From a candidate division FCPU426 bacterium (GTDB lineage Bacteria; Oederibacteriota; Muellerivitia; Muellerivitales; Muellerivitaceae): a DNA stretch of 60,567 nt. The notes beneath the pieces are model-generated. The model had not been told where the DNA came from and made no database searches. It saw nothing but the letters and a program-made list of their open reading frames with translations. A program made the translations under genes and the position numbers. Where the stretch lies: positions 1 through 60,567 of the forward strand of contig CAWKAR010000014.1 in NCBI GenBank assembly GCA_963847625.1, given 5' to 3'. Shown piece by piece: positions 7,406 through 44,147 of this stretch. Position 1 is the first letter of the stretch. Every line of letters begins with the position of its first letter.

Positions 7406-7775
7406 GAATGCCTTTTTCCATTCCTGATTTGTTTTAAAATGGGGATTAATTATAAAAGGGAAAAGTCGAAAAACCATATAATTGAGCATTTGCTAATGAG
7501 AGCGTAATTCATTGTATCGAGGGAATTGTCTGAATTCGACTTAGGACTGAACACTAAATGGTTTTTATTACGAAAGATTTTTTGGAGGAAGCCCTTCCCA
7601 GGGAGAGTTTAAACGAAACGAAATATATATTTTAATGCTTCTTATATGGTTTTAATGACCTCGCAATCTTTCTTTATTTCAATAAAAACGAGTGAGATTT
7701 ATTATCCTCGAAAAAGACTTTCATAGCCGCTTCTGTAGGAGTATGGTAAATCATCTTCTACAGATGGTGGTTTAT

Positions 7776-12061: not shown

Positions 12062-12064
12062 TAA

Positions 12065-12595
12065 ATGGGAGGGAATATGCCAGAAAACGCTGCATGGCCC
12101 AAATTCAAGTCGAATGAGAAAGCGGGCGGTTTGTTATTGGAGTGGTGGAAAGAATTGACTGAGAATCGGGGTGACAGGGCGGATTTAAAAAGGACCTCGA
12201 AACCTGTGGCTGTTATGTTCAATCCAGCTTATCACCGGTTCCGTATCCGTCTTCTATCGGCTGGTTTCAATGTCAATAACGAAAGATTAGCTGTGGTTGT
12301 GGGTTTATCAGCGCGGGTTAAAGATAACAATTCATCCAAGCCAGTAGCCCGACAGATGGGGGAACTCAAGTCGGCTGGCCGCCAATCTGTTGCCGAATTG
12401 CGATTTCGGAGGATATTGGAAACCGATCAGCCGGAAGAATTGTTTCCGATATTAATTAGAGCCTTATCGCTGTTGGGAAATACCGTCAATCTTTTGGATT
12501 TGGCCGATTCCGTTTACGGTTGGAACGACTTTCAACGGAAACGGTGGGCGTTGGAATACTATTCGATGCTTCCTGAAAAAGTTTCTAAATCATAA
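12065..12595 (+). CDS. cse2: Cascade small subunit Cse2 (CasB/Cas11)
   Basis: RGDRADLKR, SELRFRR-like (AELRFRRIL), WALEYY; operon position. Confidence 0.92.
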   Translation: MGGNMPENAAWPKFKSNEKAGGLLLEWWKELTENRGDRADLKRTSKPVAVMFNPAYHRFRIRLLSAGFNVNNERLAVVVGLSARVKDNNSSKPVARQMGELKSAGRQSVAELRFRRILETDQPEELFPILIRALSLLGNTVNLLDLADSVYGWNDFQRKRWALEYYSMLPEKVSKS

Positions 12596-12618
12596 CGAAT
12601 TACGAAAAGGAGCATGTC

Positions 12619-13677: not shown

Positions 13678-13684
13678 GGAAACC

Positions 13685-14401
13685 ATGATCGACTACTTGG
13701 TTTTCCAACTTTATGGCCCCATGGCGGCTTGGGGTGACATTGCCGTGGGCGAGGTAAGACCCGGTGTAATTAGGCCTTCCAAATCCGCTGTTCTTGGTTT
13801 GGTGGCGGCTTCTTTGGGCATTAAGCGAGAGCAAGAGGATGAGCAAAGGAAATTGACGGAGGGTTATGGTTTCGCCGTCAGGGTGGATCAGCCCGGTGCG
13901 CCTTTGACCGACTACCATACCATCCAGATGCCGCCCGCCAGCGAGACCAAAAAACGGGGGATGCATACCCGCAAGGATGAATTGGAAGCAGAGGAACTTG
14001 GAACAATTCTTTCCAGCCGGGATTACCGTACCGATTCCGTGTCCACTGTGGTTCTTTGGGCCAAGTCCGGTGCGCCTTATTCCCCCGCGCGATTGGCCCA
14101 AGCCTTGGCAGAGCCTTGCTTTGTCCCTTACTTGGGCCGGAAGTCATGCCCCTTGGCCCTGCCGGTACAAGCCCAGGTCATACAGGCGGTGACTATTCGC
14201 CAAGCTTTGGAAAATGCTTCATTCGCCTCGAAAGAATGGGTTGGTGATTTGGTCGGGCCGGGCCGAAAGGCCCTTTATTGGGACAAGGAAGGTAATTCCG
14301 GCCTGGAACCCCAGCATGAGTTCACAGCCAGGGATATTGCTATTTCCCGGGTTCGTTGGCAATTCGACACGCGGCATGAAAATCACGCGATGCTAGATTA
14401 G
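13685..14401 (+). CDS. cas5e: Cascade subunit Cas5 (CasD)
   Basis: LYGPMAAWG, PSKSAVLGLVAASLG, DYHT, YLGRKSC. Confidence 0.95.
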   Translation: MIDYLVFQLYGPMAAWGDIAVGEVRPGVIRPSKSAVLGLVAASLGIKREQEDEQRKLTEGYGFAVRVDQPGAPLTDYHTIQMPPASETKKRGMHTRKDELEAEELGTILSSRDYRTDSVSTVVLWAKSGAPYSPARLAQALAEPCFVPYLGRKSCPLALPVQAQVIQAVTIRQALENASFASKEWVGDLVGPGRKALYWDKEGNSGLEPQHEFTARDIAISRVRWQFDTRHENHAMLD

Positions 14402-14410
14402 GGAGGCCCC

Positions 14411-15127
14411 ATGTATTTTTCCAAGGTGGCATTGAGGCAGGATGTGGACCCGAATCGTTTGGCCGGGTTATTGGGAGGAAATGAATACCGGGAACATCAA
14501 ATCCTATGGAAGTTTTTCCCTGGTGTGGAGAAACGCACCGAAACGAAGCAAAACGGGAAGGACGAACGTGCCTTCCTGTTTCGGCGGGAAGCCGGGAAAT
14601 GGCCATGCTTTTATATCATGTCCTCTCGTAAGCCCCTCGCCGATGGGGATGGCGGTGACCTTTGGACTTATCAGTCCAAGGAATATAGTCCCCAAATCCA
14701 TGCTGGTCAGCGACTAGCTTTTTCCCTGCGGGTGAACCCCGTACGTTCCAAGGTTCCGAGTGAGAAGGGTAAAAGAGGGGTGCGGCACGATGTGGTTATG
14801 GAAGCCAAGACCCGCTTGAAAAATGGCGGCATTCTCAAGAATCAATGGCAACCAACGCCCGAACTGATGGCCGAGGAAGGATGGAAATGGCTTTCCGCAA
14901 GGGCTCCGAAAAATGGTTTTGCCATTGCAAAAGGGGAAATTCGCGTTGATGGCTACCGGCAACATTGGTTATCAAAACGGGGTGGTAAACCTATAAGGTT
15001 TAGCACCCTGGATTTTCAGGGTATTTTGACGGTGGAAGATCCCGGTAAGTTCAAAGAGGCTCTTTTTAACGGTATCGGCCCGGCGAAGGGGTTTGGATGC
15101 GGGCTGATGCTAGTGCGGAAGATTTAA
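14411..15127 (+). CDS. cas6e: crRNA endoribonuclease Cas6e (CasE/Cse3)
   Basis: HQ.LW..F, FSLRVNP, C-terminal GIGPAKGFGCGLM Gly-loop. Confidence 0.95.
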   Translation: MYFSKVALRQDVDPNRLAGLLGGNEYREHQILWKFFPGVEKRTETKQNGKDERAFLFRREAGKWPCFYIMSSRKPLADGDGGDLWTYQSKEYSPQIHAGQRLAFSLRVNPVRSKVPSEKGKRGVRHDVVMEAKTRLKNGGILKNQWQPTPELMAEEGWKWLSARAPKNGFAIAKGEIRVDGYRQHWLSKRGGKPIRFSTLDFQGILTVEDPGKFKEALFNGIGPAKGFGCGLMLVRKI

Positions 15128-15132
15128 AGGTA

Positions 15133-16339
<1,207 letters not shown>

Positions 16340-16410
16340 TGCTTGGGTGTTTTTTTAAGCTACGGAGCCATTTGTCGGAAAAATGACGCTTTAAAGGGCC
16401 TTTTATAAGT
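16340..16410 (+). promoter_or_regulatory. CRISPR leader (short, 71 bp)
   Basis: Lies between the cas2 stop and the first intact repeat; degenerate repeats are at the opposite end of the array. Confidence 0.7.
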
Positions 16411-19225
16411 GCGTTCCCCGCGTACGCGGGGATGAACCGCCACGATGCGCCGGTAGTAACCGATGGAAGGCGTTCCCCGCGTACGCGGGGATGAACCGAA
16501 ATTGTACGGTCTGCGTTCCCCGCGTACGCGGGGATGAACCGAAATTCAGCCAGCCACCGGCGGGAGGTAAATTGCGTTCCCCGCGTACGCGGGGATGAAC
16601 CGAAGGAAAAAATGAAATTTTCGGAAAAGTTAAAGCGTTCCCCGCGTACGCGGGGATGAACCGGACGGGAAATGCGCCACCGTCAACCGCAACGGGCGTT
16701 CCCCGCGTACGCGGGGATGAACCGGACGGGAAATGCGCCACCGTCAACCGCAACGGGCGTTCCCCGCGTACGCGGGGATGAACCGGTCACGAAAGCGTCT
16801 CCCGTGGAATGACCGGCGCGTTCCCCGCGTACGCGGGGATGAACCGTTCAACTATTTATCTTCTTTCGTGTTTCCAAAGCGTTCCCCGCGTACGCGGGGA
16901 TGAACCGTAGGGCGCGTGAAATAAATTTCCTGTGTTATCGCGTTCCCCGCGTACGCGGGGATGAACCGAAAGGGGACGAGTCAAAGCTGGTTCTTGATTT
17001 GCGTTCCCCGCGTACGCGGGGATGAACCGATCGATAACATCCTTTCACCGCTCCCCTCCACGCGTTCCCCGCGTACGCGGGGATGAACCGCTTTTGACGG
17101 AATTGGGAGTCGAACCGTGAGGGCGTTCCCCGCGTACGCGGGGATGAACCGTAGACAAAGCCCATCCATCAAATCTTTCTAATGCGTTCCCCGCGTACGC
17201 GGGGATGAACCGTTACTCAACCCCTATCAGCTATACCGTGGGAAGCGTTCCCCGCGTACGCGGGGATGAACCGGTTACCGGCCAATCCTTCGGGACCGGG
17301 ACCACGCGTTCCCCGCGTACGCGGGGATGAACCGATGCCTCCGCGCTTGCGCCCGCGTTCATGTGGCGTTCCCCGCGTACGCGGGGATGAACCGATTCAA
17401 ATGGGAATACTCGTTGGATTACTGGCGCGTTCCCCGCGTACGCGGGGATGAACCGCATGAGTTGGTGGTCGGAAAATTATTGGGCGGGCGTTCCCCGCGT
17501 ACGCGGGGATGAACCGTGATTGTGAACAGCAACGGTACTTATCAGCAGGCGTTCCCCGCGTACGCGGGGATGAACCGGGTGGCAACGTTTGTATACCTGC
17601 TCACGGAAAGCGTTCCCCGCGTACGCGGGGATGAACCGGTTACACCAGCTTTTGGTGATATCTTTACCATGCGTTCCCCGCGTACGCGGGGATGAACCGA
17701 CCCCCGCGAAAAAGCAGAACAACAACTCTTTGCGTTCCCCGCGTACGCGGGGATGAACCGAAAAAAATAACGGAGAAGCGGGCTATTCTTAAGCGTTCCC
17801 CGCGTACGCGGGGATGAACCGCCGGAGGTGAAGGAAAAACATCGGGCGTACATGCGTTCCCCGCGTACGCGGGGATGAACCGATACCACTTCGCCTTGTT
17901 GAGTTTGTTTCGCCGCGTTCCCCGCGTACGCGGGGATGAACCGGAAAATGAGGTCCGGGAATTGTGCAAAAAACTGCGTTCCCCGCGTACGCGGGGATGA
18001 ACCGGAAACCCAGCACCTAAAGGAAACCCCGACTGAGCGTTCCCCGCGTACGCGGGGATGAACCGTTACTCCCGGGGTCGTCGGAGGATATACGACGGCG
18101 TTCCCCGCGTACGCGGGGATGAACCGCTTTTTAGCTTCTTTGGCCGCTTTCTTTTCTGGCGTTCCCCGCGTACGCGGGGATGAACCGACGTTGTTCATAG
18201 ACCGAGTAGTTCGGCGCGAGCGTTCCCCGCGTACGCGGGGATGAACCGAATCATCCGATAGCCACCGGGGTATTGGTGATGCGTTCCCCGCGTACGCGGG
18301 GATGAACCGGTAGGTTCTGTAGGCTTGTTTTTTGTTTTCATGCGTTCCCCGCGTACGCGGGGATGAACCGAAAAATGAATTTAGGAATATGTTGTCCATT
18401 ATGCGTTCCCCGCGTACGCGGGGATGAACCGAATACTTTAGGAATCATCCTTTATCAAGAGCAGCGTTCCCCGCGTACGCGGGGATGAACCGTTGATTAT
18501 CTGGGTCTTTTTCATGGGTAAGAGGCGTTCCCCGCGTACGCGGGGATGAACCGGTGCTGTTAAATGGGATACCTATAAAGCAATCGCGTTCCCCGCGTAC
18601 GCGGGGATGAACCAGGAGTTGTCCCTGGTGGGAATACCTCTTTTCGGGCGTTCCCCGCGTACGCGGGGATGAACCGCTGCCCAACCTAGTGTGGAAGAGG
18701 AAGCTGCGGCGTTCCCCGCGTACGCGGGGATGAACCGACCCAACTGTAGCACAGGGATAAAAGCTCCCAGCGTTCCCCGCGTACGCGGGGATGAACCGTT
18801 TTGGCGCTTCGGACGATTCCTAAGCGTAAAGCGTTCCCCGCGTACGCGGGGATGAACCGTGATTTGGACTCCTACATCTCTTTTTGACACAGCGTTCCCC
18901 GCGTACGCGGGGATGAACCGACCCCATGGTAGGGGTCGCGGGACGGCTCACCGCGTTCCCCGCGTACGCGGGGATGAACCGATTTTCCTATGGGTCCAAA
19001 TCATCTCACAACTGCGTTCCCCGCGTACGCGGGGATGAACCGAAACATTTAGTTGGGGGCCATTTGTTTGTTGGGAGTTCCCCGCATATGCGGGGATGAT
19101 CCGAGTGGTTCGGCCAGGGTTGCCCCGAAAAAAAAGTGTTCCCCGCCTGCGCGGGGATGAACCAGAGCCGGTCTTCACCGAGTTCGGCGACCAAATGCGT
19201 TCCCCGCGTATGTGGGGATTAATTA
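16411..19225 (+). CRISPR. type I-E CRISPR array, 47 repeats / 46 spacers; repeat GCGTTCCCCGCGTACGCGGGGATGAACCG
   Basis: 29-bp repeat at mostly 61-bp period, counted by hand from 16411 to 19197; last three repeats (19075, 19136, 19197) degenerate. Confidence 0.98.
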
Positions 19226-19726
19226 CAAAATCTGTACCTAAGACGCCAAAAGAGGGAAGCGGCCATTTCGCAGCTTTTACGGGAGGAGCGCTGGTAGAAT
19301 TGAAGCCAAAACATCAATTGCGGTTTCGCAGAACGTGATGAGAGAAACATTACGCTTAATATTGTCAAGATCCACCAGGTTTTGGGGTGATCTATCAACA
19401 AACTCTCCTGAGAAATTCAAAATGGTGGTTCGTTTCACCTGGTCAGTATTTTACCTTTTCCAAATAAACCAATATCAATTAAGATTTCATTTTCTGCCAG
19501 TACGTCCTCGAACATTTTTTCAAAATTCCAGGTTCCTTTAAAAGATTCAAACCATTTTTGCCCTAGGACGACCCAGAATTATTTTTAAAGATTTTGGTTC
19601 ATCATAAAAATCTTTCGGGGAACAAACTAACGGGCCCGGAAGGGCCCGAATTAGATAACATGCAGGCCGTTCCTCCCGCCGGGATAGAATCCCGGCAGGA
19701 GTGTCTAGCTCTTAAGGAGGAACGGC

Positions 19727-29791: not shown

Positions 29792-31669
29792 ATGGTCAAG
29801 CGGCTCCTACCCCTCATCTTTATATGCCTTTTGGGAGCCCCAAGGGCTAATGCCGTATCGCTCTTATCAACCGATAGCGGCCCATCCTCACAGACTATCG
29901 AGCAGGGGGTGTCGGGTGGGATTTTTGACGCCATGGCCAAACACGCAGGGGATTGGGTCGCCCAGGGGATGGATAAGATCGGGGATTGGGCCTTACAAAC
30001 CCTCTTCAAGATTTACGACAAATATATCGGCACCTTCCTCATCTATATCCCGAATTTAGCCTCGCCCAATACCTATAATGCGTTGACCAATAACATGGGG
30101 GCCAACGCTGTCCAGGTGGTCTTGAATCTCCTGAAGATCAGTAGTGGAACGGGCCTTTTTATCCTCATTGTGGGGTTTGTGATCGACACGGGGCAAAGGT
30201 CATCCGGTCTTTGGAATAGGTTTGTTGACCCAAGTCTTGTCATTGGATTCGTGGCGGCTTTCCTATGTCTTTTCGCCTGGCCGACGATTTTTTCTTATTT
30301 AACGACTGGCGTGACGGCCATGGGTTACTACATCTACAACCAGAACACCCTGAGAACTTCAGGGGTTTTGGAGGGTTTCCAGAATATCGACTTGAATGCG
30401 GATGGGGGGGCCAACACCTTCCAATTGTCCCAATACGACTTCCGGGGAAATTTCATCACTGTCCAGGGAGTCATTTGGAACCTGATTTACCTGGTTGCCT
30501 TGGGACTGGTAGTCATTGGTTTTTACAACTGCTATTCGGCGATTTCGGCTGGTGACTCCCAAAAAGGGAATTCCAGGTTTTTCCAGGCCATGGGCGGGAT
30601 CATCCTTATCCTTGGAATGCCCACCCTTGTCCATGTGCTGATCTCAAAGGGTGCCGACACCATCAGTAATCAAACACCTGGCATCTTTTCACTCCAGGGA
30701 TTAGTCCAGGATAACGGGACCCAATATCCCCAGCAATCGGGTCAGGCTTCAACCAATATCGGGACAGCGGGAAACACGACTGCGGCAGCGCCAACGAGCA
30801 GGTTGGCCGAGTTTTCAGCCGGGTTGCTCAAGTGCGGAGTCGCCATTTGGGGGCTCATTACTTGTTTCGCGGTCATTTTCGCAAAGTTCTTTCAGGTATT
30901 GAACTTGTGGGTCTTGTTCATCCTTGGCCCCATCTTTATAGGCTGTCTAGGGCACCCCGCGACTGCTCCCATCTTTGGTGCGGCGACCAAGTACTTCGTA
31001 AAACTCCTTCTTTATTCGGTCATCTGGGCCATCACCTTGGTCGGTCTTTACCTGATCCCAAACATCAATTGGGGGGTGGAAACAATCGGGGTTAACAGCC
31101 TTTTGACGGCTGTGGCGGTACTGGCCGGTCTTCAATTGATCTCCAACGCCCAGGAATTTGCCGCACTTTTCACATCCTTCAAGGGAGGGAATTTGAAAGG
31201 GGAAGGAATCAATGAATTCGCCCGTGACACCAAAGGGGCTGTTTTAGGGGCTAATAAGGCAAGGCTTGGGACATTTGGGGCCATGAAGACGATGACGGGG
31301 GAAACCAGCCAGGCCATGGCAGCCGCAACAGGCGCGGCTGTGGGCTCCATTATTCCTGGAATTGGGACCGCTGGGGGAGCATTGGCCGGGCAAAAGTCCA
31401 TGCAGGGGTTGAACACCATCGCGAAATTGGGAGGGCTAGGCGGCAAGCCCAAAAGGGAAGATCCGGACAACCCGGTTTCCGGTTTTCTCAAGAAATTCTC
31501 AGGGAACGTCATCGCGGGAAGCCTCAAGAGGGATGCCCAGGGTAGTGGGTCATTCTCGACCAATGAAAACGAGAAAAGAAAACTTGTCGGCGATTACGCC
31601 AAAAAGCTTCAACAAGGGAAGAACTATAAAAGGCCGGGGCAGGGACCCCAGGGGAAAAGGACCGTTTAA
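29792..31669 (+). CDS. VirB6/TrbL-like polytopic membrane protein
   Basis: Many TM segments, LFILGPIFIGC motif, Gly/Ala-rich basic C-terminal tail typical of TrbL. Confidence 0.65.
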   Translation: MVKRLLPLIFICLLGAPRANAVSLLSTDSGPSSQTIEQGVSGGIFDAMAKHAGDWVAQGMDKIGDWALQTLFKIYDKYIGTFLIYIPNLASPNTYNALTNNMGANAVQVVLNLLKISSGTGLFILIVGFVIDTGQRSSGLWNRFVDPSLVIGFVAAFLCLFAWPTIFSYLTTGVTAMGYYIYNQNTLRTSGVLEGFQNIDLNADGGANTFQLSQYDFRGNFITVQGVIWNLIYLVALGLVVIGFYNCYSAISAGDSQKGNSRFFQAMGGIILILGMPTLVHVLISKGADTISNQTPGIFSLQGLVQDNGTQYPQQSGQASTNIGTAGNTTAAAPTSRLAEFSAGLLKCGVAIWGLITCFAVIFAKFFQVLNLWVLFILGPIFIGCLGHPATAPIFGAATKYFVKLLLYSVIWAITLVGLYLIPNINWGVETIGVNSLLTAVAVLAGLQLISNAQEFAALFTSFKGGNLKGEGINEFARDTKGAVLGANKARLGTFGAMKTMTGETSQAMAAATGAAVGSIIPGIGTAGGALAGQKSMQGLNTIAKLGGLGGKPKREDPDNPVSGFLKKFSGNVIAGSLKRDAQGSGSFSTNENEKRKLVGDYAKKLQQGKNYKRPGQGPQGKRTV

Positions 31670-31960
31670 ATGGCAATACCCCTTGAGAAGGAATCCAAAA
31701 TGTGGGGGCTTTTTTATTCCTCGGACTTCCACAAATTGATGTTTGTTTTCATCGGGGATGCCATTGCCTTCGTGGGTTTCATGATCTTCTGGGGTCTGGA
31801 AGGGTCCCTTGTCATTTTTTTCGGAATCCTGATCCTCGCCACCCTTTATTTCGTGATGAAGAGTTTTTGGCCTGAAAGGCACCTGGAAAACATCATTAGG
31901 TACAACAGGGAACCCAAGAGTTTTTTTCCGGGCCGGGAACCCAGCGAGTTGGAAATATGA
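31670..31960 (+). CDS. VirB3/PrgI-like small membrane protein
   Basis: 96 aa, two TM helices, overlaps the virB4 start. Confidence 0.6.
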   Translation: MAIPLEKESKMWGLFYSSDFHKLMFVFIGDAIAFVGFMIFWGLEGSLVIFFGILILATLYFVMKSFWPERHLENIIRYNREPKSFFPGREPSELEI

Positions 31961-34530
31961 GCGGATTATTCAAATCCAGGGCCAAGAACAACCCAGTGGC
32001 GGGGTTGTTGAGAATCAGGTCTGTGGGGCCGGGATACCTCGTCTTGAGGAACCCGGAGCAATATGCCTGCCTGTTCAAACTAGCTGGCGGGTTGAACCCA
32101 TGGATGGAAGACCCCGAAGTGTTGGGGGAAAAGGTCAGGAAACTGGACTCGGTACTGGCTGATTTGAGGAGCGGGGAGGAAGTCCAATTCCTGACAAAAA
32201 GGGTTTTGGCCGATGTCGAGGATGTTATTGGTCGTTATAACGAAAGAATCCATGAGAACGCACCAGAAATTTTCAGGAACCAGTACCCGGAATTCCTGGG
32301 TAATTGGCTCAGGCGGTTCTATGCGGATGAAAGGATTTGCCATTTCAGGTCTTACGTCCTTTTTACGGTTTCTACACCAACAGTTTCTAGCAAGAAGAAG
32401 GAAACGAAGGTTTCCCCGATTGAGGAGGTTCTCAGGCGGGGGAAATCCTGGGTTTCGCAGCTAAATATCGTAGGACTTGAGCCCCAGGAGGCCACTGAGG
32501 AGGAAATCTTCACCCTCTTATATGAGGAGTTATCCCTCGAAAGATTCCAGGGAAATCCCGACAGGTTCAAGAAAACATCAGGTTATTCGGGGGGTGAATA
32601 CGGAATTCAAACCCTGCGTGAAATGCTTTCCACTACCCCTTGGGATTTCAGTGACCCCAAGTATTTCAAAGTGGGGGAAACCTTTGGAAAAACCCTATAT
32701 GTGACGGAATTTCCTTCTTTCAACGAACAGAATCTATTTTTCCAGGAACTTTACGAGCGTACCGACGATTTCAAGGTTTCTTTCTATATCAAAGGGGTGG
32801 ACTTGTTTCGCGCCCAATCCATCGTGGAAAAACAAATCCAAAGCGACCAGGGGGCCTTGTGGAAACGCCAGAACGTCATGAACTTCGAGGCCCAGGCGGC
32901 GCTGGATTACCGCCAAAGCGTCCTTTCACTCGTTTCCGAAAGGAAAACATCACTCGCCAAATTCTCCCTCTACATCACCTTGTTTTCCAAAAGCCAAAAG
33001 GAACTTTCCTCAAGTTATGAAAGCCTTTCCCGGATGTTCAAGAACGTCCATCCCCTTTCAGGCTACGCGGAGCAGAAACGACTTTTCCTCTCCACCCTAC
33101 CCCAGGCAACCGATTTGGCAGGCCATGAACACTTACAGGCCACAGCAGTCATGGCAAACGCCGTTCCGTGCCTGTTCGAGCCCCTGGCAGATACCGACGG
33201 AGTTCCATTGGGGAAAACCCTTTCGGGTGAAATGGTTCATTTGAACCTTTGGGGCAGGGAAACGGAGAACTGGAACGTTCTTGTGGTGGGCTCATCCGGC
33301 ACAGGGAAATCTTTCAGCATCAACCAGCTCCTGATTAGGAACCTTCCCATGAACCCCTACATCATGATCATCGACAAATCTCAATCGTATAAGACCCTAT
33401 GCCGCTTGGCGGGAGGCAGATACCTTAATTACGACCTGGACAGCAAACACCACCTAAACATCTTTGATTATCCCTTGGATGAGATAAAGGAAAAGGACGC
33501 TGAGATCGACCCAGAACATATTTCAAGCATCATCATGTACCTGGGGGTGGTGCTGGCCAATATCAAGGAAAACCGAATCGAGGAATCGGAGGAATTGGAC
33601 AAGGCCCTGCTCCAGGAGGCAGTCAAACAAACCTACCGGAACACTATAAGCGAAGGGCGGGTGCCCCTATTAACGGACTTGAAAGATACCCTTTTAAAAA
33701 CCGCAGATGACAAGAAAGTTCCAGCCGAATTCCAATACATTTGCCGCAAGCAAGCCGAGGTCTTGAAGCTTTTCACGGGCAAGGGAATGTATGCCAACCT
33801 GACGGATCGTGAATCAACCGTGAAAGCGGACAATTCCTTCATTGTCTTCGATACGTCGGGCATCAGCGACAACGACAAGAAGGCCGTGGGTTTGGCAGTA
33901 TTCGTTATTTCAAATTACTGCCTATCGAAAGCAAAAAAGAACAAGGAACTAAACCGGTTATCCCAACTTGCCATGGACGAGTGCTGGTATCTGGCCCAAT
34001 ACCCTGCTGGATTAGCTTTTTTACTCCGTATCGCCAAGACTGCCCGGCATTTGAGGCTCCAGCCGATTTTCGCAACCCAGGAAATCGGGGAGTTTTTCGG
34101 GGTGAAGGGTGTGGAAGCCATCCTCAAGAACACCTCCACCAAAATCCTTTTAAAACTGGTCGGGGATGACATCGACCACGCCAAAGGCCTCTTACAACTA
34201 AACCCGAACCAGGTGGAAAAGGTCATGAACCTGCATTTGGTGAAGGGGGTCTATTCCCAAGCTCTGATCCACCAGACCCTCCGTCAGGGAATCGTGAACA
34301 TCTATCCCGACGAACTGGCCTACCACATCGCAACTACCTATGGCCCCGAAGCCGCCATCCGCGACCAATATCTTGAAACTTACGCCCCGGACGAAGACCC
34401 GGTTTCGACATTAGGAGCCATCGCCAAGTGGATTGAGGACAAGGAAACCAAGACAGTTTTGAAACCCGCTCCAAAGGAAAAAGACGGTCAGGCGGTCGTA
34501 AATAAGCCAAATGAGGTTGCCATGAAATGA
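31957..34530 (+). CDS. virB4: VirB4-family conjugative ATPase
   Basis: 857 aa; VVGSSGTGKS Walker A, IIDKSQSY, MDECW Walker B, TARH...ATQ. Confidence 0.93.
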   Translation: MSGLFKSRAKNNPVAGLLRIRSVGPGYLVLRNPEQYACLFKLAGGLNPWMEDPEVLGEKVRKLDSVLADLRSGEEVQFLTKRVLADVEDVIGRYNERIHENAPEIFRNQYPEFLGNWLRRFYADERICHFRSYVLFTVSTPTVSSKKKETKVSPIEEVLRRGKSWVSQLNIVGLEPQEATEEEIFTLLYEELSLERFQGNPDRFKKTSGYSGGEYGIQTLREMLSTTPWDFSDPKYFKVGETFGKTLYVTEFPSFNEQNLFFQELYERTDDFKVSFYIKGVDLFRAQSIVEKQIQSDQGALWKRQNVMNFEAQAALDYRQSVLSLVSERKTSLAKFSLYITLFSKSQKELSSSYESLSRMFKNVHPLSGYAEQKRLFLSTLPQATDLAGHEHLQATAVMANAVPCLFEPLADTDGVPLGKTLSGEMVHLNLWGRETENWNVLVVGSSGTGKSFSINQLLIRNLPMNPYIMIIDKSQSYKTLCRLAGGRYLNYDLDSKHHLNIFDYPLDEIKEKDAEIDPEHISSIIMYLGVVLANIKENRIEESEELDKALLQEAVKQTYRNTISEGRVPLLTDLKDTLLKTADDKKVPAEFQYICRKQAEVLKLFTGKGMYANLTDRESTVKADNSFIVFDTSGISDNDKKAVGLAVFVISNYCLSKAKKNKELNRLSQLAMDECWYLAQYPAGLAFLLRIAKTARHLRLQPIFATQEIGEFFGVKGVEAILKNTSTKILLKLVGDDIDHAKGLLQLNPNQVEKVMNLHLVKGVYSQALIHQTLRQGIVNIYPDELAYHIATTYGPEAAIRDQYLETYAPDEDPVSTLGAIAKWIEDKETKTVLKPAPKEKDGQAVVNKPNEVAMK

Positions 34531-36600: not shown

Positions 36601-36637
36601 TTTCGTATTGGTCATTAAATTCATAAGGAGAAGAAAC

Positions 36638-36979
36638 ATGGGTCTGAAAATCAGGATTACCAGGATGTTTCCCTATGACGGGGAACACACGAAGGCTTTT
36701 GTCGGAGCAAAGGTCCAAATATCTGGTCGTGTCTTTGGTTACAACGAATTAACGCTTGTGAAGAAGAAAGACGGGGATGGTTTTTTCTTGGGCCTTCCTT
36801 CTAGGCCTGGAAGGCAGGAGGGAGAGTACCACGATATTTGCTACATGGACGCAAATACCGGGAAAGACATTGAGAAAGTCGCAATCGCCGAGTACGAGAA
36901 GAAAATCAAGGAAAGCGCACAGGTGCCTATAGAGGATAACCAAGGACCGAGAGAGGAAAGGAGAAAAGTGAAAAGGTGA
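36638..36979 (+). CDS. spoVG: SpoVG-family nucleic-acid-binding protein (paralogue 1)
   Basis: TKAF..., GFFLGLPSR...GEYHDIC, IEKVAIAEY; AAGGAG RBS. Confidence 0.75.
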   Translation: MGLKIRITRMFPYDGEHTKAFVGAKVQISGRVFGYNELTLVKKKDGDGFFLGLPSRPGRQEGEYHDICYMDANTGKDIEKVAIAEYEKKIKESAQVPIEDNQGPREERRKVKR

Positions 36980-37010
36980 CGGGCAGAATAAAAATCAAAG
37001 GAGGAAGCAA

Positions 37011-37313
37011 ATGGCTTTAAAGGTCAAGGTTACGAGGATGTACCCCTACGAAGGGGAGAACACGCAGGCGTTTTTCGACGTGAAGGTTGCCATCGCCAGT
37101 TATGAGTTCTATTTCAACGACCTGACATTGGTGAAGAAGAAGGATGGGGATGGGTTGTTCGTGGGTTTCCCATCCCGCCCAGGCAAAAAGGATGGGGAGT
37201 ATTTTCACTTTTGCAACGCCAACAAAAAGGCGAAGGCGGAAATAGAGAAGGCTGCGGTGGACGAATATAAGAAAAAGGCCAAGGAAAAAGAACCGGCTGC
37301 TGAGAAGGGTTGA
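37011..37313 (+). CDS. spoVG: SpoVG-family nucleic-acid-binding protein (paralogue 2)
   Basis: TQAFFDV, GLFVGFPSR...DGEYFHF, IEKAAVDEY; GGAGG RBS. Confidence 0.75.
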   Translation: MALKVKVTRMYPYEGENTQAFFDVKVAIASYEFYFNDLTLVKKKDGDGLFVGFPSRPGKKDGEYFHFCNANKKAKAEIEKAAVDEYKKKAKEKEPAAEKG

Positions 37314-37354: not shown

Positions 37355-37675
37355 ATGGATAATCGAAGAAAGGAACAACGCAGGAAAGCGGAGCGGCGTC
37401 GCTTAGCAATGGAAAAAATGGTCACTTATCGGGAGGCTGCCGATTACGCGCACGTTTCCATAAGAACGATTATTCGATGGGTAAAAATGGGCAAACTGAA
37501 GGCGAGGTATGTTTTTGGAAGAAATTCGAGGATTAGCATGACGTCCCTTAAGGTAGTCATCAATAAGATGCCGGAAGTTAAATCGGGTTCAAAAAAAGTT
37601 ACTGATTTGTTATCATCGAAGCATCAGGAAGCTGGGGCGGAGGGAGGCAGAAATGCCAATCAACGTCCAGCTTAA
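37355..37675 (+). CDS. xis: excisionase-like HTH protein
   Basis: VTYREAADYAHVSIRTIIRWVKMGKLKA...RIS winged HTH; overlaps the integrase start. Confidence 0.8.
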   Translation: MDNRRKEQRRKAERRRLAMEKMVTYREAADYAHVSIRTIIRWVKMGKLKARYVFGRNSRISMTSLKVVINKMPEVKSGSKKVTDLLSSKHQEAGAEGGRNANQRPA

Positions 37676-38969
37676 GCAGAGAGTCGGGCGCGACAAGAAT
37701 TTGCGCCCCTACTGGTATTTTTATTGGTTGAGCCAGGAAGGGAAGGCGCGTTTTAAAACAACGCGATTCCCTGTCAGGGAATACCCGGATTTGGCCGCGA
37801 AGAAAGCGGCCGTTATTGAGCGGGCCAGGGCAGAGTTGCAGACCCGCTTAAACGACGGGGTTGACCCAACCAAGGTACCGGTTGGAAATATGAAGTTTTC
37901 GGAGGTTGTTGACCAGTACCTTGACGATCCAGTGTTGAAGATCCGGGAAAAAGTCTCTTACCAGAGGAACATCAAACAAAAAATTGATGTCCTAAAGGCG
38001 ATGTTTGGCAATTTCGAAATTCGCCAGATGACGGTAAAGATAGTTTCCGAATGGTTCAACTCAAGGAGAAAGTTGGTAAAAGACGGAAGGGGCCGCGAGA
38101 GTTGTGCTAACGCTTGGAACCTTCTGGAATACAAGGGTCACTTGGGTAGGATATTCCGATGGGCAAAAAAGAAGTCCATTGCCAGGAACAATCCGATCCT
38201 TGAAATCCTTGATCTTGATCCAAACTTTTTCCCGACGCCCCCCAGGCGCCAGATCGTCACGGTGACGGATGAGGAAATTTCCGCCATGCTGGACGCGATG
38301 GACCAGCTGGAAGAACAGCAAAGGCGGTTATTGGTTCATCCGGATAGGATACCGGTCGCTTTGTTCCGGGATGTTTTCCTGTTCCGCTTATACCAGGGGA
38401 CCAGGGTCCAGGAAGCGTTGGATATCCAGGTCAGTGACCTTTCCAGGAAGGAATTAAGGGATAGAAATCGCCGGGTCGTAGGACACAGGAACTTTGTCTT
38501 CATAAAGCCTGGAAAAACGGGGGAAGGAAGGACCATCCCCGTCTTGAAAATGGCCGAGGAGATTGTCTGGAGGAATATCCAAAATAAGAAGCCGGAAGAC
38601 TTCTTATTTTCTGTTGCGGGTAAGCACTTAAAAACTTGCAACATGAGGCGATTATTTGGTAGAACTATCGACCTGGCTTCCAAGATAATACCGGACTTAA
38701 AGGCAAAGGGGCTTCGTTTTTACGATCTTCGCCACCTCTGTTTGACGAGAATGGCCTTACAGAAGGTAGGCGATAGGCTGCTCGGGAATTTCGCGGGTCA
38801 TCGAAGCAGGACGTCCACGGACTATTACGTGAACTTTGCTGAGAATGACCTGGTGGACGCAATTGAGATGGTTGAGCAGTCCTACGGGGTCGAAAATACT
38901 TTGCCACGGCTTAGCCACAAGCCTTTTTTGACAGGAGAAAGTGCAGAAAAGCCTGATTTGCGGGAATAA
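37653..38969 (+). CDS. int: tyrosine recombinase/integrase
   Basis: Arm-binding-like N-terminus; catalytic R (GTRVQE), K (KTGEGR), YDLRH (H replaced by Y in HxxR), GH, Y (TDYY). Confidence 0.93.
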   Translation: MPINVQLKQRVGRDKNLRPYWYFYWLSQEGKARFKTTRFPVREYPDLAAKKAAVIERARAELQTRLNDGVDPTKVPVGNMKFSEVVDQYLDDPVLKIREKVSYQRNIKQKIDVLKAMFGNFEIRQMTVKIVSEWFNSRRKLVKDGRGRESCANAWNLLEYKGHLGRIFRWAKKKSIARNNPILEILDLDPNFFPTPPRRQIVTVTDEEISAMLDAMDQLEEQQRRLLVHPDRIPVALFRDVFLFRLYQGTRVQEALDIQVSDLSRKELRDRNRRVVGHRNFVFIKPGKTGEGRTIPVLKMAEEIVWRNIQNKKPEDFLFSVAGKHLKTCNMRRLFGRTIDLASKIIPDLKAKGLRFYDLRHLCLTRMALQKVGDRLLGNFAGHRSRTSTDYYVNFAENDLVDAIEMVEQSYGVENTLPRLSHKPFLTGESAEKPDLRE

Positions 38970-39000
38970 CTCAGCGGTAGAGTGCAACCTTGCCAAGGTT
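38960..39000 (+). pseudogene. 5' half of tRNA-Gly(GCC), probable att core
   Basis: GCGGGAATAACTCAGCGGTAGAGTGCAACCTTGCCAAGGTT: acceptor 5' strand, D-arm and anticodon arm intact; no T-arm GTTCRA follows. Confidence 0.85.
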
Positions 39001-39096
39001 AAGCCCGAATTTGGTTTCCCGTTAAAAATTGTTGGGAAATAAAATAAAAAATCAATTTTTGTCCCGCTTCCCCGACAATTCATCGCAAAGAAAAAA

Positions 39097-39359
39097 TGCC
39101 AGAAAGTGCCGTAAAATGACAGGGTGTGACAAACTTTCTGTGCCAAATCTGTGCCACTGTTTTTTCGAATGCAACCCTTTATAGGTTGCGTAAAATCATT
39201 ATTTCACAAACCAAAAACTCAAAATTTTACTGTGCCACTTTTTCTTGGAGTGCAACCCTTCTAGGTTGCAACGAATCATAACAAATCTAGAATTTTTTAT
39301 AATTGAGTGTAACCGTATTAAGGTTGCATATGATTTCGATGTTCACACTTGTGCCACAG
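39097..39359. repeat. array of integrase arm-type (TG(C/A)C(A/G), TGTGCCA) and core-type (TGCAACC-N6/7-GGTTGC) sites
   Basis: TG(C/A)C(A/G) at 39097/107/117/127 (10-bp period); TGTGCCA at 39139, 39150, 39231, 39351; cores at 39170, 39251, 39308. Confidence 0.8.
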
Positions 39360-39536
39360 GAGAATGAAGAGAGTGATTTAAACCTGACCTTGTCGAACAA
39401 GAAAAACGGAGGAATTTTCATTGTTGTATATAAATTAAGGTTAGGAAACGGTTTCTTTATAGGGCAAAAATGATATTTGGTCGGCGTTTGTAGTTTGGTC
39501 TAATAATTTCTAATAGCCTTGAAAGGAGTTTAACCA

Positions 39537-39722
39537 ATGTCAGGGCGTAAAGTTATGGCGACTTTTTATGGAAAATACGCTAAGTACGAGGTAATTAAAC
39601 CTGAAAGTAGTGATTGGTCAAATCCGGGATTTTACATTTTCAGGGATGGCGAGCAAATTAGCGGCGGTTATGATTCGCTCGAAGCTGCTGTGGAGGAAGC
39701 GAAAAAATTAAGCGGGAATTAG
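39537..39722 (+). CDS. small hypothetical protein
   Basis: AAAGGAG RBS; 61 aa. Confidence 0.65.
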   Translation: MSGRKVMATFYGKYAKYEVIKPESSDWSNPGFYIFRDGEQISGGYDSLEAAVEEAKKLSGN

Positions 39723-40281
39723 ATCTGGTGATTCTATGGAGTTATAACTCGTCTGCAATGCGACGGATTTAGCGGGCTGATGGTGTCCAACATGGACCAC
39801 GGTTCAGGGTGATTATTTTCGCATTGATGTTACGGTGCGTATTACGGCATACGATGTTCATCGACCAAAGGCGATTTTTAAAACAAATATTTCTGTATCT
39901 GACATTTGTGGGAACAATAATATTTTTCCCATTGGTGGGATATTTGGAGAAGGGGATGTTAGAAAAGAACTTGCTACAGAAGTCATAAATATTGTTAATA
40001 AATCAATAAAATAGTAATTTAGAGGAAAAAATGAATTTGTGAAGCTGATAACAGCCTGTAGTGTCTTTGTGCATTTCTATCAGCATTTCTCGTTTTTAGG
40101 AAAGTCCAGAATCTTATACATTCCCTCCAGTATCGTCCTTTTGTGCCGCCGGTATTTGTCCTTGTAAATCCCAAAGTTGATTTGCATGGATTTTCCACCG
40201 TCTTGAATGCTGTTATCATATTTCGAGCATTTAGAAGTGGGAGTTTTTCAGAGGTTAAAAATATTTAGTGGAGCGAAATAA

Positions 40282-41244
40282 ATGCTTTCTTTGCGGCCTA
40301 TGCGAACAATCGAATTTCCAATAATTCCAGGCTACTATCGATCATACGCAGTTAGTGCGGAAATTAAAATACAATCGGGAGTTTTTAAGAAGGTTAAATG
40401 TGCCAGCATTATTGACCATATTGATCAATGGCCAATAATTTCACCCGCCATTCTTAAACGTCTCGGCAGTCCGCGAGTAGGTAAAGTTTTTAAATGGACT
40501 GAAGATTGGGGACCAACGGGTGAGTTAGTGTTAAAACTTTCAATCCGGATTAATCGTAAAAATGACAATCTATCTACATCGTTTTTCGCTAGAGTTGGAA
40601 AGACACAAAAAGGATACGACTTGATTCTGCCTGACTCGGTTCTTTATTCGTTAGGGGATTGCATGTGCAATGATAAAAGTCTTTGCCTTGGATATCCAAA
40701 AACTTATTTATGGTCCAGTACTTCTTTGGACGAATTATCAAAAAAGGCTGTTCTTATTCTCGGTAATGATACGGAGCCTCATTTAAGTATTTTGAGGCTC
40801 ATTGAAACAACTATTAATCAATTGCGTCCGTTTCAAGGTTGGCTTCTTAAGGACTATGCTGACCAACCATCTCACAACCTTATTCGAAAATTGCTTGCAA
40901 TGGCTTCTAGTAGTTCATTTACGATAATTGAAGATTCGAAACCGGGTGGTCAACTACTAGAACTAGGTGTGCTTGGCTCGCTTCCTTTTCCTATTGCTGT
41001 ATTAAGAAATAAAAATTCCAACTCATCGTGGATGGTCGACCCACTTATGGAAAATAAAAATTTTCGTAAAGTTTTTTATTACGATTTAAAAAAGGATCCT
41101 CTTACTTTAATAAAAGCAGTTGGTCAATCATTTACTTGGGCGAGGAACATTATTGTTGATAAGGCGCAACATCTTAACTTAACCTACCCTTGGCGTGATG
41201 TTGATTTTAAATTGTGGAATGAATTTGGTGACGTTGATAGATAA
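40282..41244 (+). CDS. hypothetical protein: degenerate retropepsin-like N-terminal domain plus NDT/TIR-like C-terminal domain
   Basis: IIDHIDQWPIISPAILKRLG...YDLILPDSVL; AVLILG...FTIIEDSKPGGQLLELGVL; AT-rich; domain calls by eye. Confidence 0.55.
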   Translation: MLSLRPMRTIEFPIIPGYYRSYAVSAEIKIQSGVFKKVKCASIIDHIDQWPIISPAILKRLGSPRVGKVFKWTEDWGPTGELVLKLSIRINRKNDNLSTSFFARVGKTQKGYDLILPDSVLYSLGDCMCNDKSLCLGYPKTYLWSSTSLDELSKKAVLILGNDTEPHLSILRLIETTINQLRPFQGWLLKDYADQPSHNLIRKLLAMASSSSFTIIEDSKPGGQLLELGVLGSLPFPIAVLRNKNSNSSWMVDPLMENKNFRKVFYYDLKKDPLTLIKAVGQSFTWARNIIVDKAQHLNLTYPWRDVDFKLWNEFGDVDR

Positions 41245-41307
41245 GTGTTAAAAATGCATGAATTTGAGGGTTCAGAAAAAAATCGTGGTAACTTTAATTC
41301 TTTGGTG

Positions 41308-41397
41308 TGCAACCTAAGGAAGGTTGTGCGCTAACCTGTATACGTTTCCCTGTAACGGTTTTAAAAAAAGAAATTTCACTGGCACAGATTTGGCACA
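41308..41397. repeat. att-like core plus inverted arm site closing the cargo
   Basis: TGCAACC-TAAGGAA-GGTTG at 41308; TGGCACAGATTTGGCACA (41380-97) is the exact reverse complement of 39139-56. Confidence 0.8.
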
Positions 41398-41475: not shown

Positions 41476-43341
41476 ATGTCCTTTTTCAAATCCGTCGAGA
41501 AACACACCCCTACTGTACTGGTCGGATTTGCCGTCTATTCTGGCGTTAAATTCACTCTGGAAGTTCTTGGCGTCATCTCTCCATCGGTAACCCCCTTTGA
41601 CACCCTTTCGGCCCTTTCCGTTGGTTTCCTCTTCATGTTTGAGAAGCATGTCCGTATTGACCACCTCTTGGCTTTTGCCCCCGCCGTTATAGCCCTGGCT
41701 TTTTGCCATGACTTTTTCGGGGTTTTCCTGGGAAACGAGGGGTTCACGGGGGACGTGGTAATGGGCCTTTCCATCCTGATCGGTTTTTGCATTTATTTCA
41801 TCCATTTTTACATGCGGCATACAACGGAACACCAGGGTGTGTCGCCAACCCATGAAGGAGGGAAATTTTCGCTTTACCTGGACGAAGAAAACAAGTTTTT
41901 CATCCCCGCCGAACTTCTCAAGTACCACACGGAGGTTATTGGATCTTCCGGAATGGGCAAAACCAACATCTTCAACCACATGATCGAGCAGGGGATCAGG
42001 AACGGCTTGGGTATGTTTGTTTTCGACGCCAAATCCAACTACAACAAGCACATCCCCTATTACGCCCAGAAATATGGACGTCTCCACGATTTAAAGTATT
42101 TCGACTTAGCTGACATAAAACGTAGCCAGACCTACAACCCAGACTTCAAAGACAAACCAGATGAGGTCTTTAACGGTCTGATGAAGTCGATCTTTTATGG
42201 TCCTGTAACCCAGGAATATTACCGGGACCAAGCCAGCGACGTTTTGAGCAACTTAACGAATCTTCTTTTTATGGAATTCAAGCACGTTACCCGGATGGAT
42301 TACCAGAACCTGATATCCAACGAGATCAGGTCTTTTGACACAATCAAAGTATTGGCTAAGAAACATGAGGACACCGTCTCGGGAAAATACTTTTTGGAGA
42401 AGTGGGTCAATATGTCGGAGAAGGACCGGGAATTGAACCTTTCGGGCCTGACTAGCAAACTTGCCCGGTTCACAAATAGGGAATGGTCACCTCTTATCAA
42501 TACCCTGAACCCAGATATCAAGATGAAGGACGTGGTTGAGAAACAACAGATATTCCTATTTGGGACCTCTTCCCTGGTGAACCAGGAAGACTCTAAACCG
42601 GTCATTATTTCGGCCCTAATAGACCTGGCGGGGGTAATAGGGAGGCGGTTAATTGAGAAGCCGGAAAGACCCTTTTTCGTGTTTTTGGACGAGTTCTATA
42701 CCGCTGCATATCCCGGCCTAAACGACCTTATTTCCCTTGGTCGGGAAGCCAATGTTTGCTTCTTCCTGGCCCATCACAGTCTGGGCCAACTGGGGGCAGT
42801 CAGCCAGGAATTCAAGGACGATATCCTTACCAACACTAATCACAAGATCGTGATGAACATCACCGAAAAAGACACAGTGGATTTTTTTGCCGCCATATTC
42901 GGAACCAAAGTCACCATGAAGGACGTTTTATCCTATGACACCCGAGTACCCCAACCCAGGGGGAAGACCGTGAAACCGGATGAGGAATTCATCATCCATC
43001 CCAATTATTTAAGGGGAATGAAACGTGGGGAAGCAGTATGCAGAATCGTCTATGTCTCAGGGCCGAAAGTTTTCAAGATGAAGCTTAAGGAAGTCAAACC
43101 TCCACCCCGAGAATTTGATTATGTGGGCTGTGTTCCTATAAGGGATAACCACAAAAAATCAAATCAATACAACAAAATCGATTTACCAAAAGTCGAGACA
43201 CCCTCGAAAACGACCCCTAAAAATGTTGAAGCAAAAAAACCGCCCAAAGAAATCCAAAAAGAAGAACCTAAAACTGACGCGGAATTATTATCCAAGGGGG
43301 AGGTTTATTCTAAAAAACTAGGGAAAGGAGAAGTTCATTGA
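41476..43341 (+). CDS. virD4: type IV coupling protein (VirD4/TraD/TrwB-like)
   Basis: N-terminal TMs; HTEVIGSSGMGKT Walker A, VFDAK, FLDEF Walker B, GREANV. Confidence 0.9.
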   Translation: MSFFKSVEKHTPTVLVGFAVYSGVKFTLEVLGVISPSVTPFDTLSALSVGFLFMFEKHVRIDHLLAFAPAVIALAFCHDFFGVFLGNEGFTGDVVMGLSILIGFCIYFIHFYMRHTTEHQGVSPTHEGGKFSLYLDEENKFFIPAELLKYHTEVIGSSGMGKTNIFNHMIEQGIRNGLGMFVFDAKSNYNKHIPYYAQKYGRLHDLKYFDLADIKRSQTYNPDFKDKPDEVFNGLMKSIFYGPVTQEYYRDQASDVLSNLTNLLFMEFKHVTRMDYQNLISNEIRSFDTIKVLAKKHEDTVSGKYFLEKWVNMSEKDRELNLSGLTSKLARFTNREWSPLINTLNPDIKMKDVVEKQQIFLFGTSSLVNQEDSKPVIISALIDLAGVIGRRLIEKPERPFFVFLDEFYTAAYPGLNDLISLGREANVCFFLAHHSLGQLGAVSQEFKDDILTNTNHKIVMNITEKDTVDFFAAIFGTKVTMKDVLSYDTRVPQPRGKTVKPDEEFIIHPNYLRGMKRGEAVCRIVYVSGPKVFKMKLKEVKPPPREFDYVGCVPIRDNHKKSNQYNKIDLPKVETPSKTTPKNVEAKKPPKEIQKEEPKTDAELLSKGEVYSKKLGKGEVH

Positions 43342-44147
43342 GGGGCCTGAAAGAAATGACTGGAATTGAAATTGAACATCTGGCATGGATTCATTCCAAT
43401 AAATTTACAACTCCAGAATTGTTTCATCTGAAGTTCCTTCCTAATCAGAGTTCCAGGAACGCCTACAAAATTCTAAAAAAATACACCAGCTTGGAAAGAG
43501 ACCTTTTACACGTTTTTAAGACACCAGTAGGAAACAGTAACCTTTTCTTCTTAACTGCGGGGGCCTTGAGAACGTTGGATGAAAATAACAAAATTTTAGT
43601 TCGATCCAACAAGTATCCAATCAAGATCAACACTCATGAGAAAGAGCACGACCTAATGGTTCAGACAATCCGAATAACATTCGAATCTTTGGATGAACTT
43701 GGGGATATTTTTTGGGTTTCAGATTTTGAGATGCGGTCAGGAATTACACCTTCAATTAAGGCGGAATACCTGGAAGGGAAGTTGAATAAGGAAAGATGGC
43801 GCTCTAATGGGGCCAATCCGAATCCAAAAGGAAGAAGAACACCGGATGGATATTTTGAGGCAGACATGGAAGGCCGAAGAATCTCTTTCACACTTGAGCT
43901 TGAGAACCATCATTACAATGAAACAATTCTTCAAAGGATGATCGATAATTTAAAAAACGGCTTTCCTCGCGCCCTCAAACTAATCGTTTCCGCAACACCC
44001 GGAAATGCTGTCCGGATGATCCGTTCCCTTCAAACTAGAATTAAACCCGATGAACAGCAACAGTGGTTCGTTTCCGATTTTGAGAGGGTAACCACCAAAC
44101 CGTTTAAAAAATGCTGGCACCAATTGAATAAATCATTAGCGGAATAG
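43338..44147 (+). CDS. replication-relaxation family protein (putative relaxase)
   Basis: N-terminal wHTH (FFLTAGAL), HDLMV, RTPDGYF...LELE PD-(D/E)xK-like motif; coupled to virD4. Confidence 0.65.
   Translation: MRGLKEMTGIEIEHLAWIHSNKFTTPELFHLKFLPNQSSRNAYKILKKYTSLERDLLHVFKTPVGNSNLFFLTAGALRTLDENNKILVRSNKYPIKINTHEKEHDLMVQTIRITFESLDELGDIFWVSDFEMRSGITPSIKAEYLEGKLNKERWRSNGANPNPKGRRTPDGYFEADMEGRRISFTLELENHHYNETILQRMIDNLKNGFPRALKLIVSATPGNAVRMIRSLQTRIKPDEQQQWFVSDFERVTTKPFKKCWHQLNKSLAE

Follow-up and report, generated by a model that had tools for sequence, protein, structure and literature searches.

Behind the integrase gene of a 60,567-nucleotide stretch of DNA from a candidate division FCPU426 bacterium (hereafter the window), five palindromic cores with different overlap sequences lie between positions 38960 and 41397, and the locus raises the question of what a tyrosine integrase would do with so many. 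The window is the entire contig G000:C14 of a 63-contig assembly, G000 being the source genome; other places are given as genome:contig:position, with G001, G025, G019 and others for related genomes and L for the loci compared. A first-pass annotation had proposed a cassette-insertion platform, a library of alternative overlaps or the scars of repeated integration. From its sequence, the window DNA is assigned to an integrative and conjugative element (ICE), and the interval 38960–41397 is the junction between two tandem ICE copies, not a single attP, because the window's tail and head adjoin in other copies (G000:C20, G025:C2, G001:C16). We consider it somewhat probable that the left end of this tRNA-Gly ICE lineage includes a second site at which the element's integrase recombines, and that cargo is exchanged there. 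The comparison of ICE ends gives the following layout: attL/P' arm, one or more extra palindromic cores (TGCAACC-N6–8-GGTTGCA), variable cargo, a core, an inverted P-like arm doublet and virD4.

The core array in the window

All five cores were found at the places first described, at 38983 (overlap TTGCCAA), 39170 (CTTTATA), 39251 (CTTCTA, 6 nt), 39308 (GTATTAA, a TGTAACC variant) and 41308 (TAAGGAA), whereas 2000 dinucleotide shuffles of 38960–41397 gave a mean of 0.016 cores and a maximum of 1. Two integrase paralogues, 56–57% identical, were identified in both G000 and G001. Int-A, carried by the window, G001:C16, G025 and L068, is accompanied by TTTGCCA-type arms 82–83 nt ahead of the core, and Int-B, carried by C19 and G001:C3, by the arms TGTGCCAAATCTGTGCCA 70 nt ahead of the core. 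The window's doublet of the first type (TTTGCCA-N4-TTAGCCA; TTTGCCACGGCTTAGCCA) had been missed in the first pass. It lies inside the 3' end of int (38900–38917, + strand), 83 nt before the tRNA core, holds the same position in G001:C16, G025:C2 and L068, and is the arm type of the adjacent Int-A.

At the left of the array, the 5' half of tRNA-Gly(GCC) (38960–38982) and core T together occupy 38960–39003 (+ strand) and join the right end of the upstream ICE to the left end of the downstream ICE. This part had been labelled the anticodon arm; it is indeed tRNA-Gly sequence, but comprises the 5' half plus the core rather than the arm alone. It is followed by a conserved P' segment of the downstream ICE (39004–39138, + strand), with homologues at C15, C29 (twice), C32, G001:C6, G001:C16, G025:C2 and G019:C54, in which phased short repeats at ~39097–39131 are possible Xis sites. 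The P' arm doublet (39139–39156, + strand) is of Int-B type (TGTGCCAAATCTGTGCCA), identical to the doublet that precedes the core by 70 nt next to the paralogous int of G000:C19 and G001:C3. Core X (39170–39190, + strand) is recognised as an exchange point by flank comparison with C32:26570 and C29:88285. Two mini-units with terminal cores follow, one (39191–39270, + strand) with a single arm heptamer (39231–39237) and the 6-nt overlap core (39251–39270), the other (39271–39328, + strand) with the GTATTAA core (39308–39328). The 81-bp tandem unit reported earlier stands as a spacing of 81 bp, but its copies are alike over the first ~31 nt only (87%), with 35/81 positions identical in an ungapped comparison.

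The following 39329–41307, to which no strand is assigned, is a mosaic cargo, AT-rich as had been described (37.5% GC vs 51.9% for the genome). It contains a single arm heptamer (39350–39356), a 61-aa open reading frame (ORF; 39537–39722), the relic of a transposase start (~40055–40270) and an orphan 320-aa ORF (40282–41244), for which no match was found in Pfam, PADLOC or Atlas and no homologue. The relic corresponds to the start of a multi-copy transposase-like ORF, which we take to be IS5-like, and a 281-bp piece of the cargo is 96% identical to ICE DNA elsewhere in G001. Core Y (41308–41328, + strand) has equivalents before virD4 at C15:22397, C20:51824, G001:C6:316886 and G001:C7:7961. 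Its inverted, P-arm-like end carries an Int-B-type doublet (41380–41397, − strand), placed by arm-to-core distance 69 nt from core Y and confirmed as an exact inverted copy of the 18-bp doublet at 39139–39156. Because the doublets at 39139 and 41380 are of Int-B type, unlike the adjacent Int-A, the array is probably the left end of a downstream ICE whose own int lies beyond the contig. An attP of the adjacent int made up of all five cores is not supported, since the arms of that int are of the other type.

Probable crossover points and cargo exchange

Homology between copies breaks exactly at the cores, where the same left flank is joined to unrelated DNA through different overlaps. The left flank of core X (C14:39170) is identical at 50/50 positions to that of C32:26570 and at 49/50 to that of C29:88285, with right flanks matching at 8/50 and 15/50, respectively, and overlaps that depart from CTTTATA at 3 of 7 positions. 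Taken jointly, the three sites share 49–50/50 positions on the left and 8–16/50 on the right, and their overlaps differ at 2–3 of 7 positions; three or more differences in seven would have a probability of 0.001–0.006 at 3–6% divergence. A 3-kb repeated element follows the core at C29:88285.

A shared right flank was observed at the core GTGATCA, where a match between G000:C15 and G001:C6 starts that is 99.9% identical over 7.2 kb (left flank 10/50, right flank 50/50). The cargo ahead of this core is a TetR/OEP/AcrB resistance-nodulation-division efflux operon in G000:C15 and Cas12b-Cas1-Cas2 in G001:C6, and in the same slot G019 has four ORFs, one of them encoding an OLD-like ATPase. No close native homologue of the efflux cargo was found in 99 genomes (best 67–77% over parts). 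To this extent the proposed cassette-insertion platform is supported: the core breakpoints mark the cores as crossover points, and related copies carry different cargo in the interval. The system in G001:C6 is a type V-B CRISPR-Cas with a Cas12b of 1299 aa, a Cas4-Cas1 fusion, Cas2 and an array, located between the arm/core module and GTGATCA (L219:4342–10392, corresponding to G001:C6:309341–315391).

Within the overlaps, the arm-side bases are recurrent. CT is present at all five Int-B-type X sites, and the inverted ends, read from the arm side, begin with T in 7/8 cases and with C in the eighth, which has a 6-nt overlap. The bases away from the arm vary and can travel with either flank. A rule that the overlap always moves with the right flank was dropped, as GGGAAG moves with the left flank (C32 vs G001:C6). 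Additionally, 8-nt and 6-nt overlaps lie only 17 nt apart in G001:C6, and two inverted-type ends are joined head to head in C16.

On a larger scale, the gene order near ychF, smpB-rnr and a glycosidase region differs between G000 and G001 (C29 and C32; G001:C6 and C7), with core-bearing modules at the joins, and the gene that usually stands upstream of tRNA-Gly lies apart from it in G000. Chromosome rearrangement driven by Int at those joins is possible.

Left ends of related ICE copies

An extra core after the arms was found in 8/8 distinct left ends with the P' segment in G000, G001, G025 and G019 (C14, C15, C29 twice, C32, G001:C6, G025:C2 and G019:C54; G001:C16 counts as a duplicate of C14, and four weak matches without the P' segment are omitted). 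Among left ends of sibling ICEs that carry other integrases (C11, L108, L110, L111), 0/4 have extra cores and none has a perfect 7-N6–8-7 palindrome; there, virD4 lies within a few hundred bases of the tRNA and P' arms. This sibling set leaves out two incomplete virD4 loci, L106 and L113.

A core with inverted arms precedes virD4 in C14, C15, C20, G001:C6 and G001:C7, and the same inverted end occurs without virD4 in C16, C29 and G019. Both arm doublets within a module are always of the same type. Moreover, the arm-to-core distance of the inverted end copies that of its own type, at 68–69 nt vs 70 nt in the P arm for Int-B and 80–81 vs 82–83 nt for the virD4-linked Int-A ends; other inverted ends lie at 60, 61 and 88 nt. 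The cargo-side half is a perfect GGTTGCA in 8/8 inverted ends, and all 10 sites in G000 with at most one mismatch from the full palindrome are these ICE ends or tRNA.

One complete arm/core module, at L217:4100–9330 (G019:C54), belongs to a genome that has no close int match; it contains four cargo ORFs together with a 3' fragment of tRNA-Cys. Its TTGCCAA core is flanked on the left by non-tRNA sequence.

Integrases and the primary tRNA-Gly site

Int-A (37653–38969, + strand; 438 aa) is a three-domain tyrosine integrase (PF00589) with a presumed N-terminal arm-binding domain. Its catalytic R251, K288, R360, H383 and Y392 are unchanged across nine homologues, as is Y357 of the H-x-x-R catalytic motif, which reads Y-D-L-R here. 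The best matches of its structure model (pLDDT 68) are full-length lambda Int and Tn1549 Int, and an integron integrase appears at rank 37. The clade is narrow, being present in 3 of 99 genomes of the phylum, with 12 proteins at E<=1e-20 and 3 clusters at E<=1e-30 among 1.84 billion representatives. A single-protein scan of genome contigs returned no homologous loci, an alignment scan of genome contigs returned one, on a G025 contig, and a metagenome scan returned one 1.9-kb contig carrying int and an intact tRNA. In viral contigs, no homologous locus was found by protein; 28 matches to an arm plus half-core pattern there were rejected as chance, with neither a full core nor int.

The integrase lineage targets the tRNA-Gly(GCC) anticodon loop and supplies the 5' half of the tRNA, restoring it. 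The order int, arms and 5' half, followed by an intact tRNA, was observed at G000:C19, G001:C3, G025:C2 and L068, and a split tRNA (attL) lies at G025:C2:202207, behind the gene that precedes tRNA-Gly in most relatives. The ICE combines integrase and excisionase genes with both attachment sites: in G025:C2, attR (intact tRNA-Gly) and attL (5' half) are ~32 kb apart. Core T junctions with TTGCCAA were identified at C14, C15, C29 (twice), G001:C6 and G001:C16, and all four distinct int ends whose DNA was examined (window/G001:C16, C19/G001:C3, G025 and L068) finish in the tRNA 5' half and TTGCCAA. Known tRNA-targeting islands with a 5' fragment are alike in their anticodon-loop crossover and gene restoration; the class, a minority, is unusual but known, with 159 of 3919 islands in the Islander set (PMC4383910).

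Within the int coding region, the stretch 38604–38690 resembles a promoter-like region 5' of tRNA-Gly in the relatives G022, G026, G030, G011 and G009, as well as at G000:C29 and G001:C6; the region upstream of this tRNA is a different one in most other relatives. Transcription of the restored tRNA operon may start from this stretch, and hosts with the matching region may have kept an int-derived promoter. C29:87952–88022, once taken for an int remnant, was dropped as such, being the tRNA promoter region present in relatives. At G000:C15:16269–16400, the tRNA promoter-like region is separated from the tRNA 5' half by a ~110-bp piece with an arm doublet and perfect inward half-sites at its bounds. 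The overlaps differ at the two ends of this piece, which is a possible mini-element mobilised by Int.

Proposed mechanism and rival explanations

In the mechanism proposed for exchange at the second site, Int held by the P' arms and the inverted arms would recombine the extra cores with other cores, located in sibling ICE ends, decayed ICE remnants or chance half-sites. As in CTnDOT, identity would be required only at one or two overlap bases beside the arm-bearing half. The remaining overlap bases could then come from either partner, which would account for the varied 6–8-nt spacers. Each event would add or replace one unit, and cargo would build up, be swapped and travel with the ICE. The 57- and 81-bp units, too short for former circles, would be leftovers of exchange events. 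Although the mechanism is deduced from its products, their pattern is that expected of an IntDOT-like or Tn1549-like enzyme; IntDOT requires that a single base at the first cleavage site be identical (PMC2817482), and the crossover regions of Tn1549 are 5–7 nt long (PMC5871717).

A more tentative and, in our view, doubtful extension is that the site is a dedicated, selected capture platform, a second attP built from the element's own P' arm and an inverted P-arm copy, with use of tRNA-Gly remaining strict. One lambda-type integrase would then load, replace and re-order multi-gene cargo at double-stranded palindromic cores without overlap identity. If true, integrons and pdif modules would be joined by a third cassette system that arose independently and is operated by an integrase of the element itself.

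Several observations weigh against cargo exchange at a second site. The array is assigned to Int-B by arm sequence only, across contigs that are not joined. Homology between inverted end and P arm is significant (p<0.01) in one of five matched-type tests (p = 0.0007), the other four being weak or absent. Since the genomes and the copies are related to one another, their counts do not represent independent cases. In G001:C16, the same five cores are kept with flanks identical at 412/412 and 569/569 positions, and 1.54 kb of cargo was lost through a 2-base overlap away from any core. Because of this copy, the array is not shown to be fast-moving, and the invariant interval that the first-pass annotation named as a refutation is in part what was observed. 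Furthermore, neither a cargo unit shared by two different core positions nor an empty X|Y site was found among the copies compared, and the cargo of the window is a decayed mosaic, not tidy cassettes.

A serious rival, if a rather unlikely one, is that the cores are an unselected pile of scars, namely junctions that a sloppy integrase left behind through accretion in tandem, integration off target and imprecise excision, comparable to remnants of cis-mobilizable elements (CIMEs), with accidental capture of cargo at chance half-sites and no dedicated platform. ICE copies and remnants form a decaying tandem array in G000, and the 330 TGCAACC half-sites of this genome (1 per 13 kb) would be enough to bound captures of 2–8 kb. 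In several attL sites, core T has a degenerate P' half, suggesting that one good half-site can suffice; lone cores and arms are found at G001:C3, G001:C7, G019:C34 and C15:16269, and cargo ends often resemble decayed ICE ends. However, the extra core with inverted arms recurs in three genera, with both arm types and in matched geometry, sibling tandem ICEs have no extra cores, and all eight inverted ends keep the perfect cargo-side half. The scars proposed in the first pass would partly arise by the same mechanism as the platform, and these data do not separate the two.

It is improbable that the extra cores serve as alternative attP sites that let the ICE enter other chromosomal targets through different overlaps. 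A changed 7-bp overlap does retarget mv4 Int when the attP and attB overlaps match (bioRxiv 10.1101/2023.11.06.565760), and modules were found off the tRNA-Gly locus (C29, C32 and G019:C54). Yet 0/13 non-tRNA overlaps equal a host tRNA anticodon loop, the four window overlaps turn up in host sites, with 4–5 mismatches, no more often than shuffled overlaps do, 4/4 distinct int ends finish at the tRNA site, and no ICE was found that has Y and X as its ends and interrupts an otherwise contiguous host site. The earlier suggestion of target switching is accordingly not upheld, as no host tRNA loop or host site carries these overlaps. Operators of a host- or ICE-encoded transcription factor would fit the dyad symmetry and a position upstream of virD4 and cargo genes; such a function is very improbable, since perfect palindromes number 5 in G000, 5 in G001 and one each in three genomes, with none in 94 of the other 97, spacer length varies from 6 to 8, homology breaks at the palindromes and Int itself uses the half-site, which is the anticodon stem of the tRNA. 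An assembly artefact, in which repeats of the multi-copy ICE were collapsed, could be suspected of a window that is a whole contig in a fragmented assembly holding several ICE copies. It is more improbable still, as the independent genome G001 has the same five cores in the same order within a 70-kb contig (G001:C16), with the identical flanks around the deletion given above.

No description of this architecture was found in the literature searched, which covered few subscription journals. The way in which ICEs acquire cargo at fixed hotspots is largely unexplained, the cargo regions of Pseudomonas syringae ICEs being an example (PMC10945833). Here, the crossover points can be seen together with the enzyme, its arm sites and two swapped cargos, which makes capture by an integrase directly testable. 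If true, an integrase that joins kilobase-sized DNA at a 7+7-bp palindrome, with little overlap identity and two arm specificities, would also be of engineering interest.

Relation to known recombination systems

The cargo site works like pdif modules or integrons, with an overlap tolerance like that of CTnDOT and Tn916, and is a member of none of these groups. CTnDOT and Tn916/Tn1549 resemble it in having a three-domain tyrosine integrase with arm sites and partner overlaps that differ, and the Int model matches Tn1549 Int. In contrast to them, the ICE stays with one tRNA-Gly site, at which the overlap is identical, and its variable overlaps are found in an internal, cargo-bracketing array rather than at the two ends of a transposon. 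Overlaps of 6, 7 and 8 nt, and different overlaps on shared flanks, can be read from the products, as for conjugative transposons. No filled and empty pair at a secondary site was found that would indicate insertion at several non-homologous sites.

The pdif modules of Acinetobacter plasmids consist of cargo between short double-stranded tyrosine-recombinase sites with varied spacers, where they are shuffled (PMC13141974). The ICE modules are likewise bounded by short double-stranded sites with varied spacers, but pdif relies on the host XerC/XerD and on asymmetric 28-bp sites with identical or near-identical spacers. The ICE cores are symmetric, tied to Int arm sites and derived from a tRNA anticodon stem, and their overlaps differ at 2–3 of 7 positions on an unchanged flank. 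The cores (TGCAACC/GGTTGCA) are unlike the XerC/XerD 11-bp halves around a 6-bp spacer of the pdif sites given in PMC13141974, and near-identity of spacers holds at GTGATCA and fails at the X sites, where 2–3 of 7 bases differ with one flank unchanged.

With integrons (IntI, attI, attC) the ICE shares one platform, variable cargo at recombination sites and growth of an array beside integrase-binding repeats. The cargo here differs in consisting of multi-gene operons or mosaics, not single-gene cassettes. No NCBIfam integron-integrase model exceeded its cut-off for Int-A or Int-B, and no attC hairpins were found, the folds being the 7-bp core arms only (bottom strand of 41250–41340, z = −0.34). 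A scan for a Pc promoter gave 10 promoter-like matches vs 7.8 expected, none outstanding.

Tandems of ICESt1/ICESt3 and SXT contain ICE copies and remnants at one tRNA site and capture genes by cis-mobilisation (PMC5704250 and PMC5812530). This CIME-ICE accretion is alike in its tandem copies and remnants at one tRNA site, and core T repeats the attB overlap as an accretion junction does. The four extra cores do not repeat it and carry an added inverted arm doublet, so that accretion explains core T and the tandem, that is 1/5 cores only.

The ICE and its remaining genes

On its left side the window ICE DNA encodes VirB6-like and VirB4-like proteins, followed by xis and int; virD4 and a candidate relaxase lie on the right. 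The conjugation genes of the upstream copy (29792–34530, + strand) match Pfam TrbL and P-loop_TraG, the VirB4-like match being above cut-off, with NCBIfam VirB4/TraC matches under the cut-off. The excisionase-like xis (37409–37675, + strand) matches TIGR01764 at 28.9 bits (cut-off 28.8) and HTH_17 under the cut-off. The first backbone genes of the downstream ICE (41476–44147, + strand) encode a virD4-like coupling protein, with TrwB_AAD_bind and TraG-D_C of Pfam above cut-off, and a candidate replication-relaxation relaxase, for which Atlas matches of 0.94 with PF13814 on 17–29% of members provide a lead and NF041423 falls under the cut-off. Stretches of the ICE are ~100% identical in G000 and G001, vs ~75–83% identity of chromosomal genes.

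A conserved hairpin-bearing segment between the inverted arms and virD4 is a candidate origin of transfer (oriT); it was observed at G000:C20:51600–51730, C29:58170–58310 and L064:7700–7860 and is missing in the window copy. Toxin-antitoxin genes and a type I-E CRISPR-Cas system are further cargo of the ICE; the latter (7692–19230) has a long array unlike that of G001:C16. Two tandem SpoVG-like genes (36608–37313) lie directly upstream of xis-int and are kept in sibling ICE copies. The same conjugation backbone was also identified at G000:C3, C11, C19, C20, C36 and C52, and some of these copies stand beside other integrases and tRNA-Thr, which shows exchange of the integrase module.

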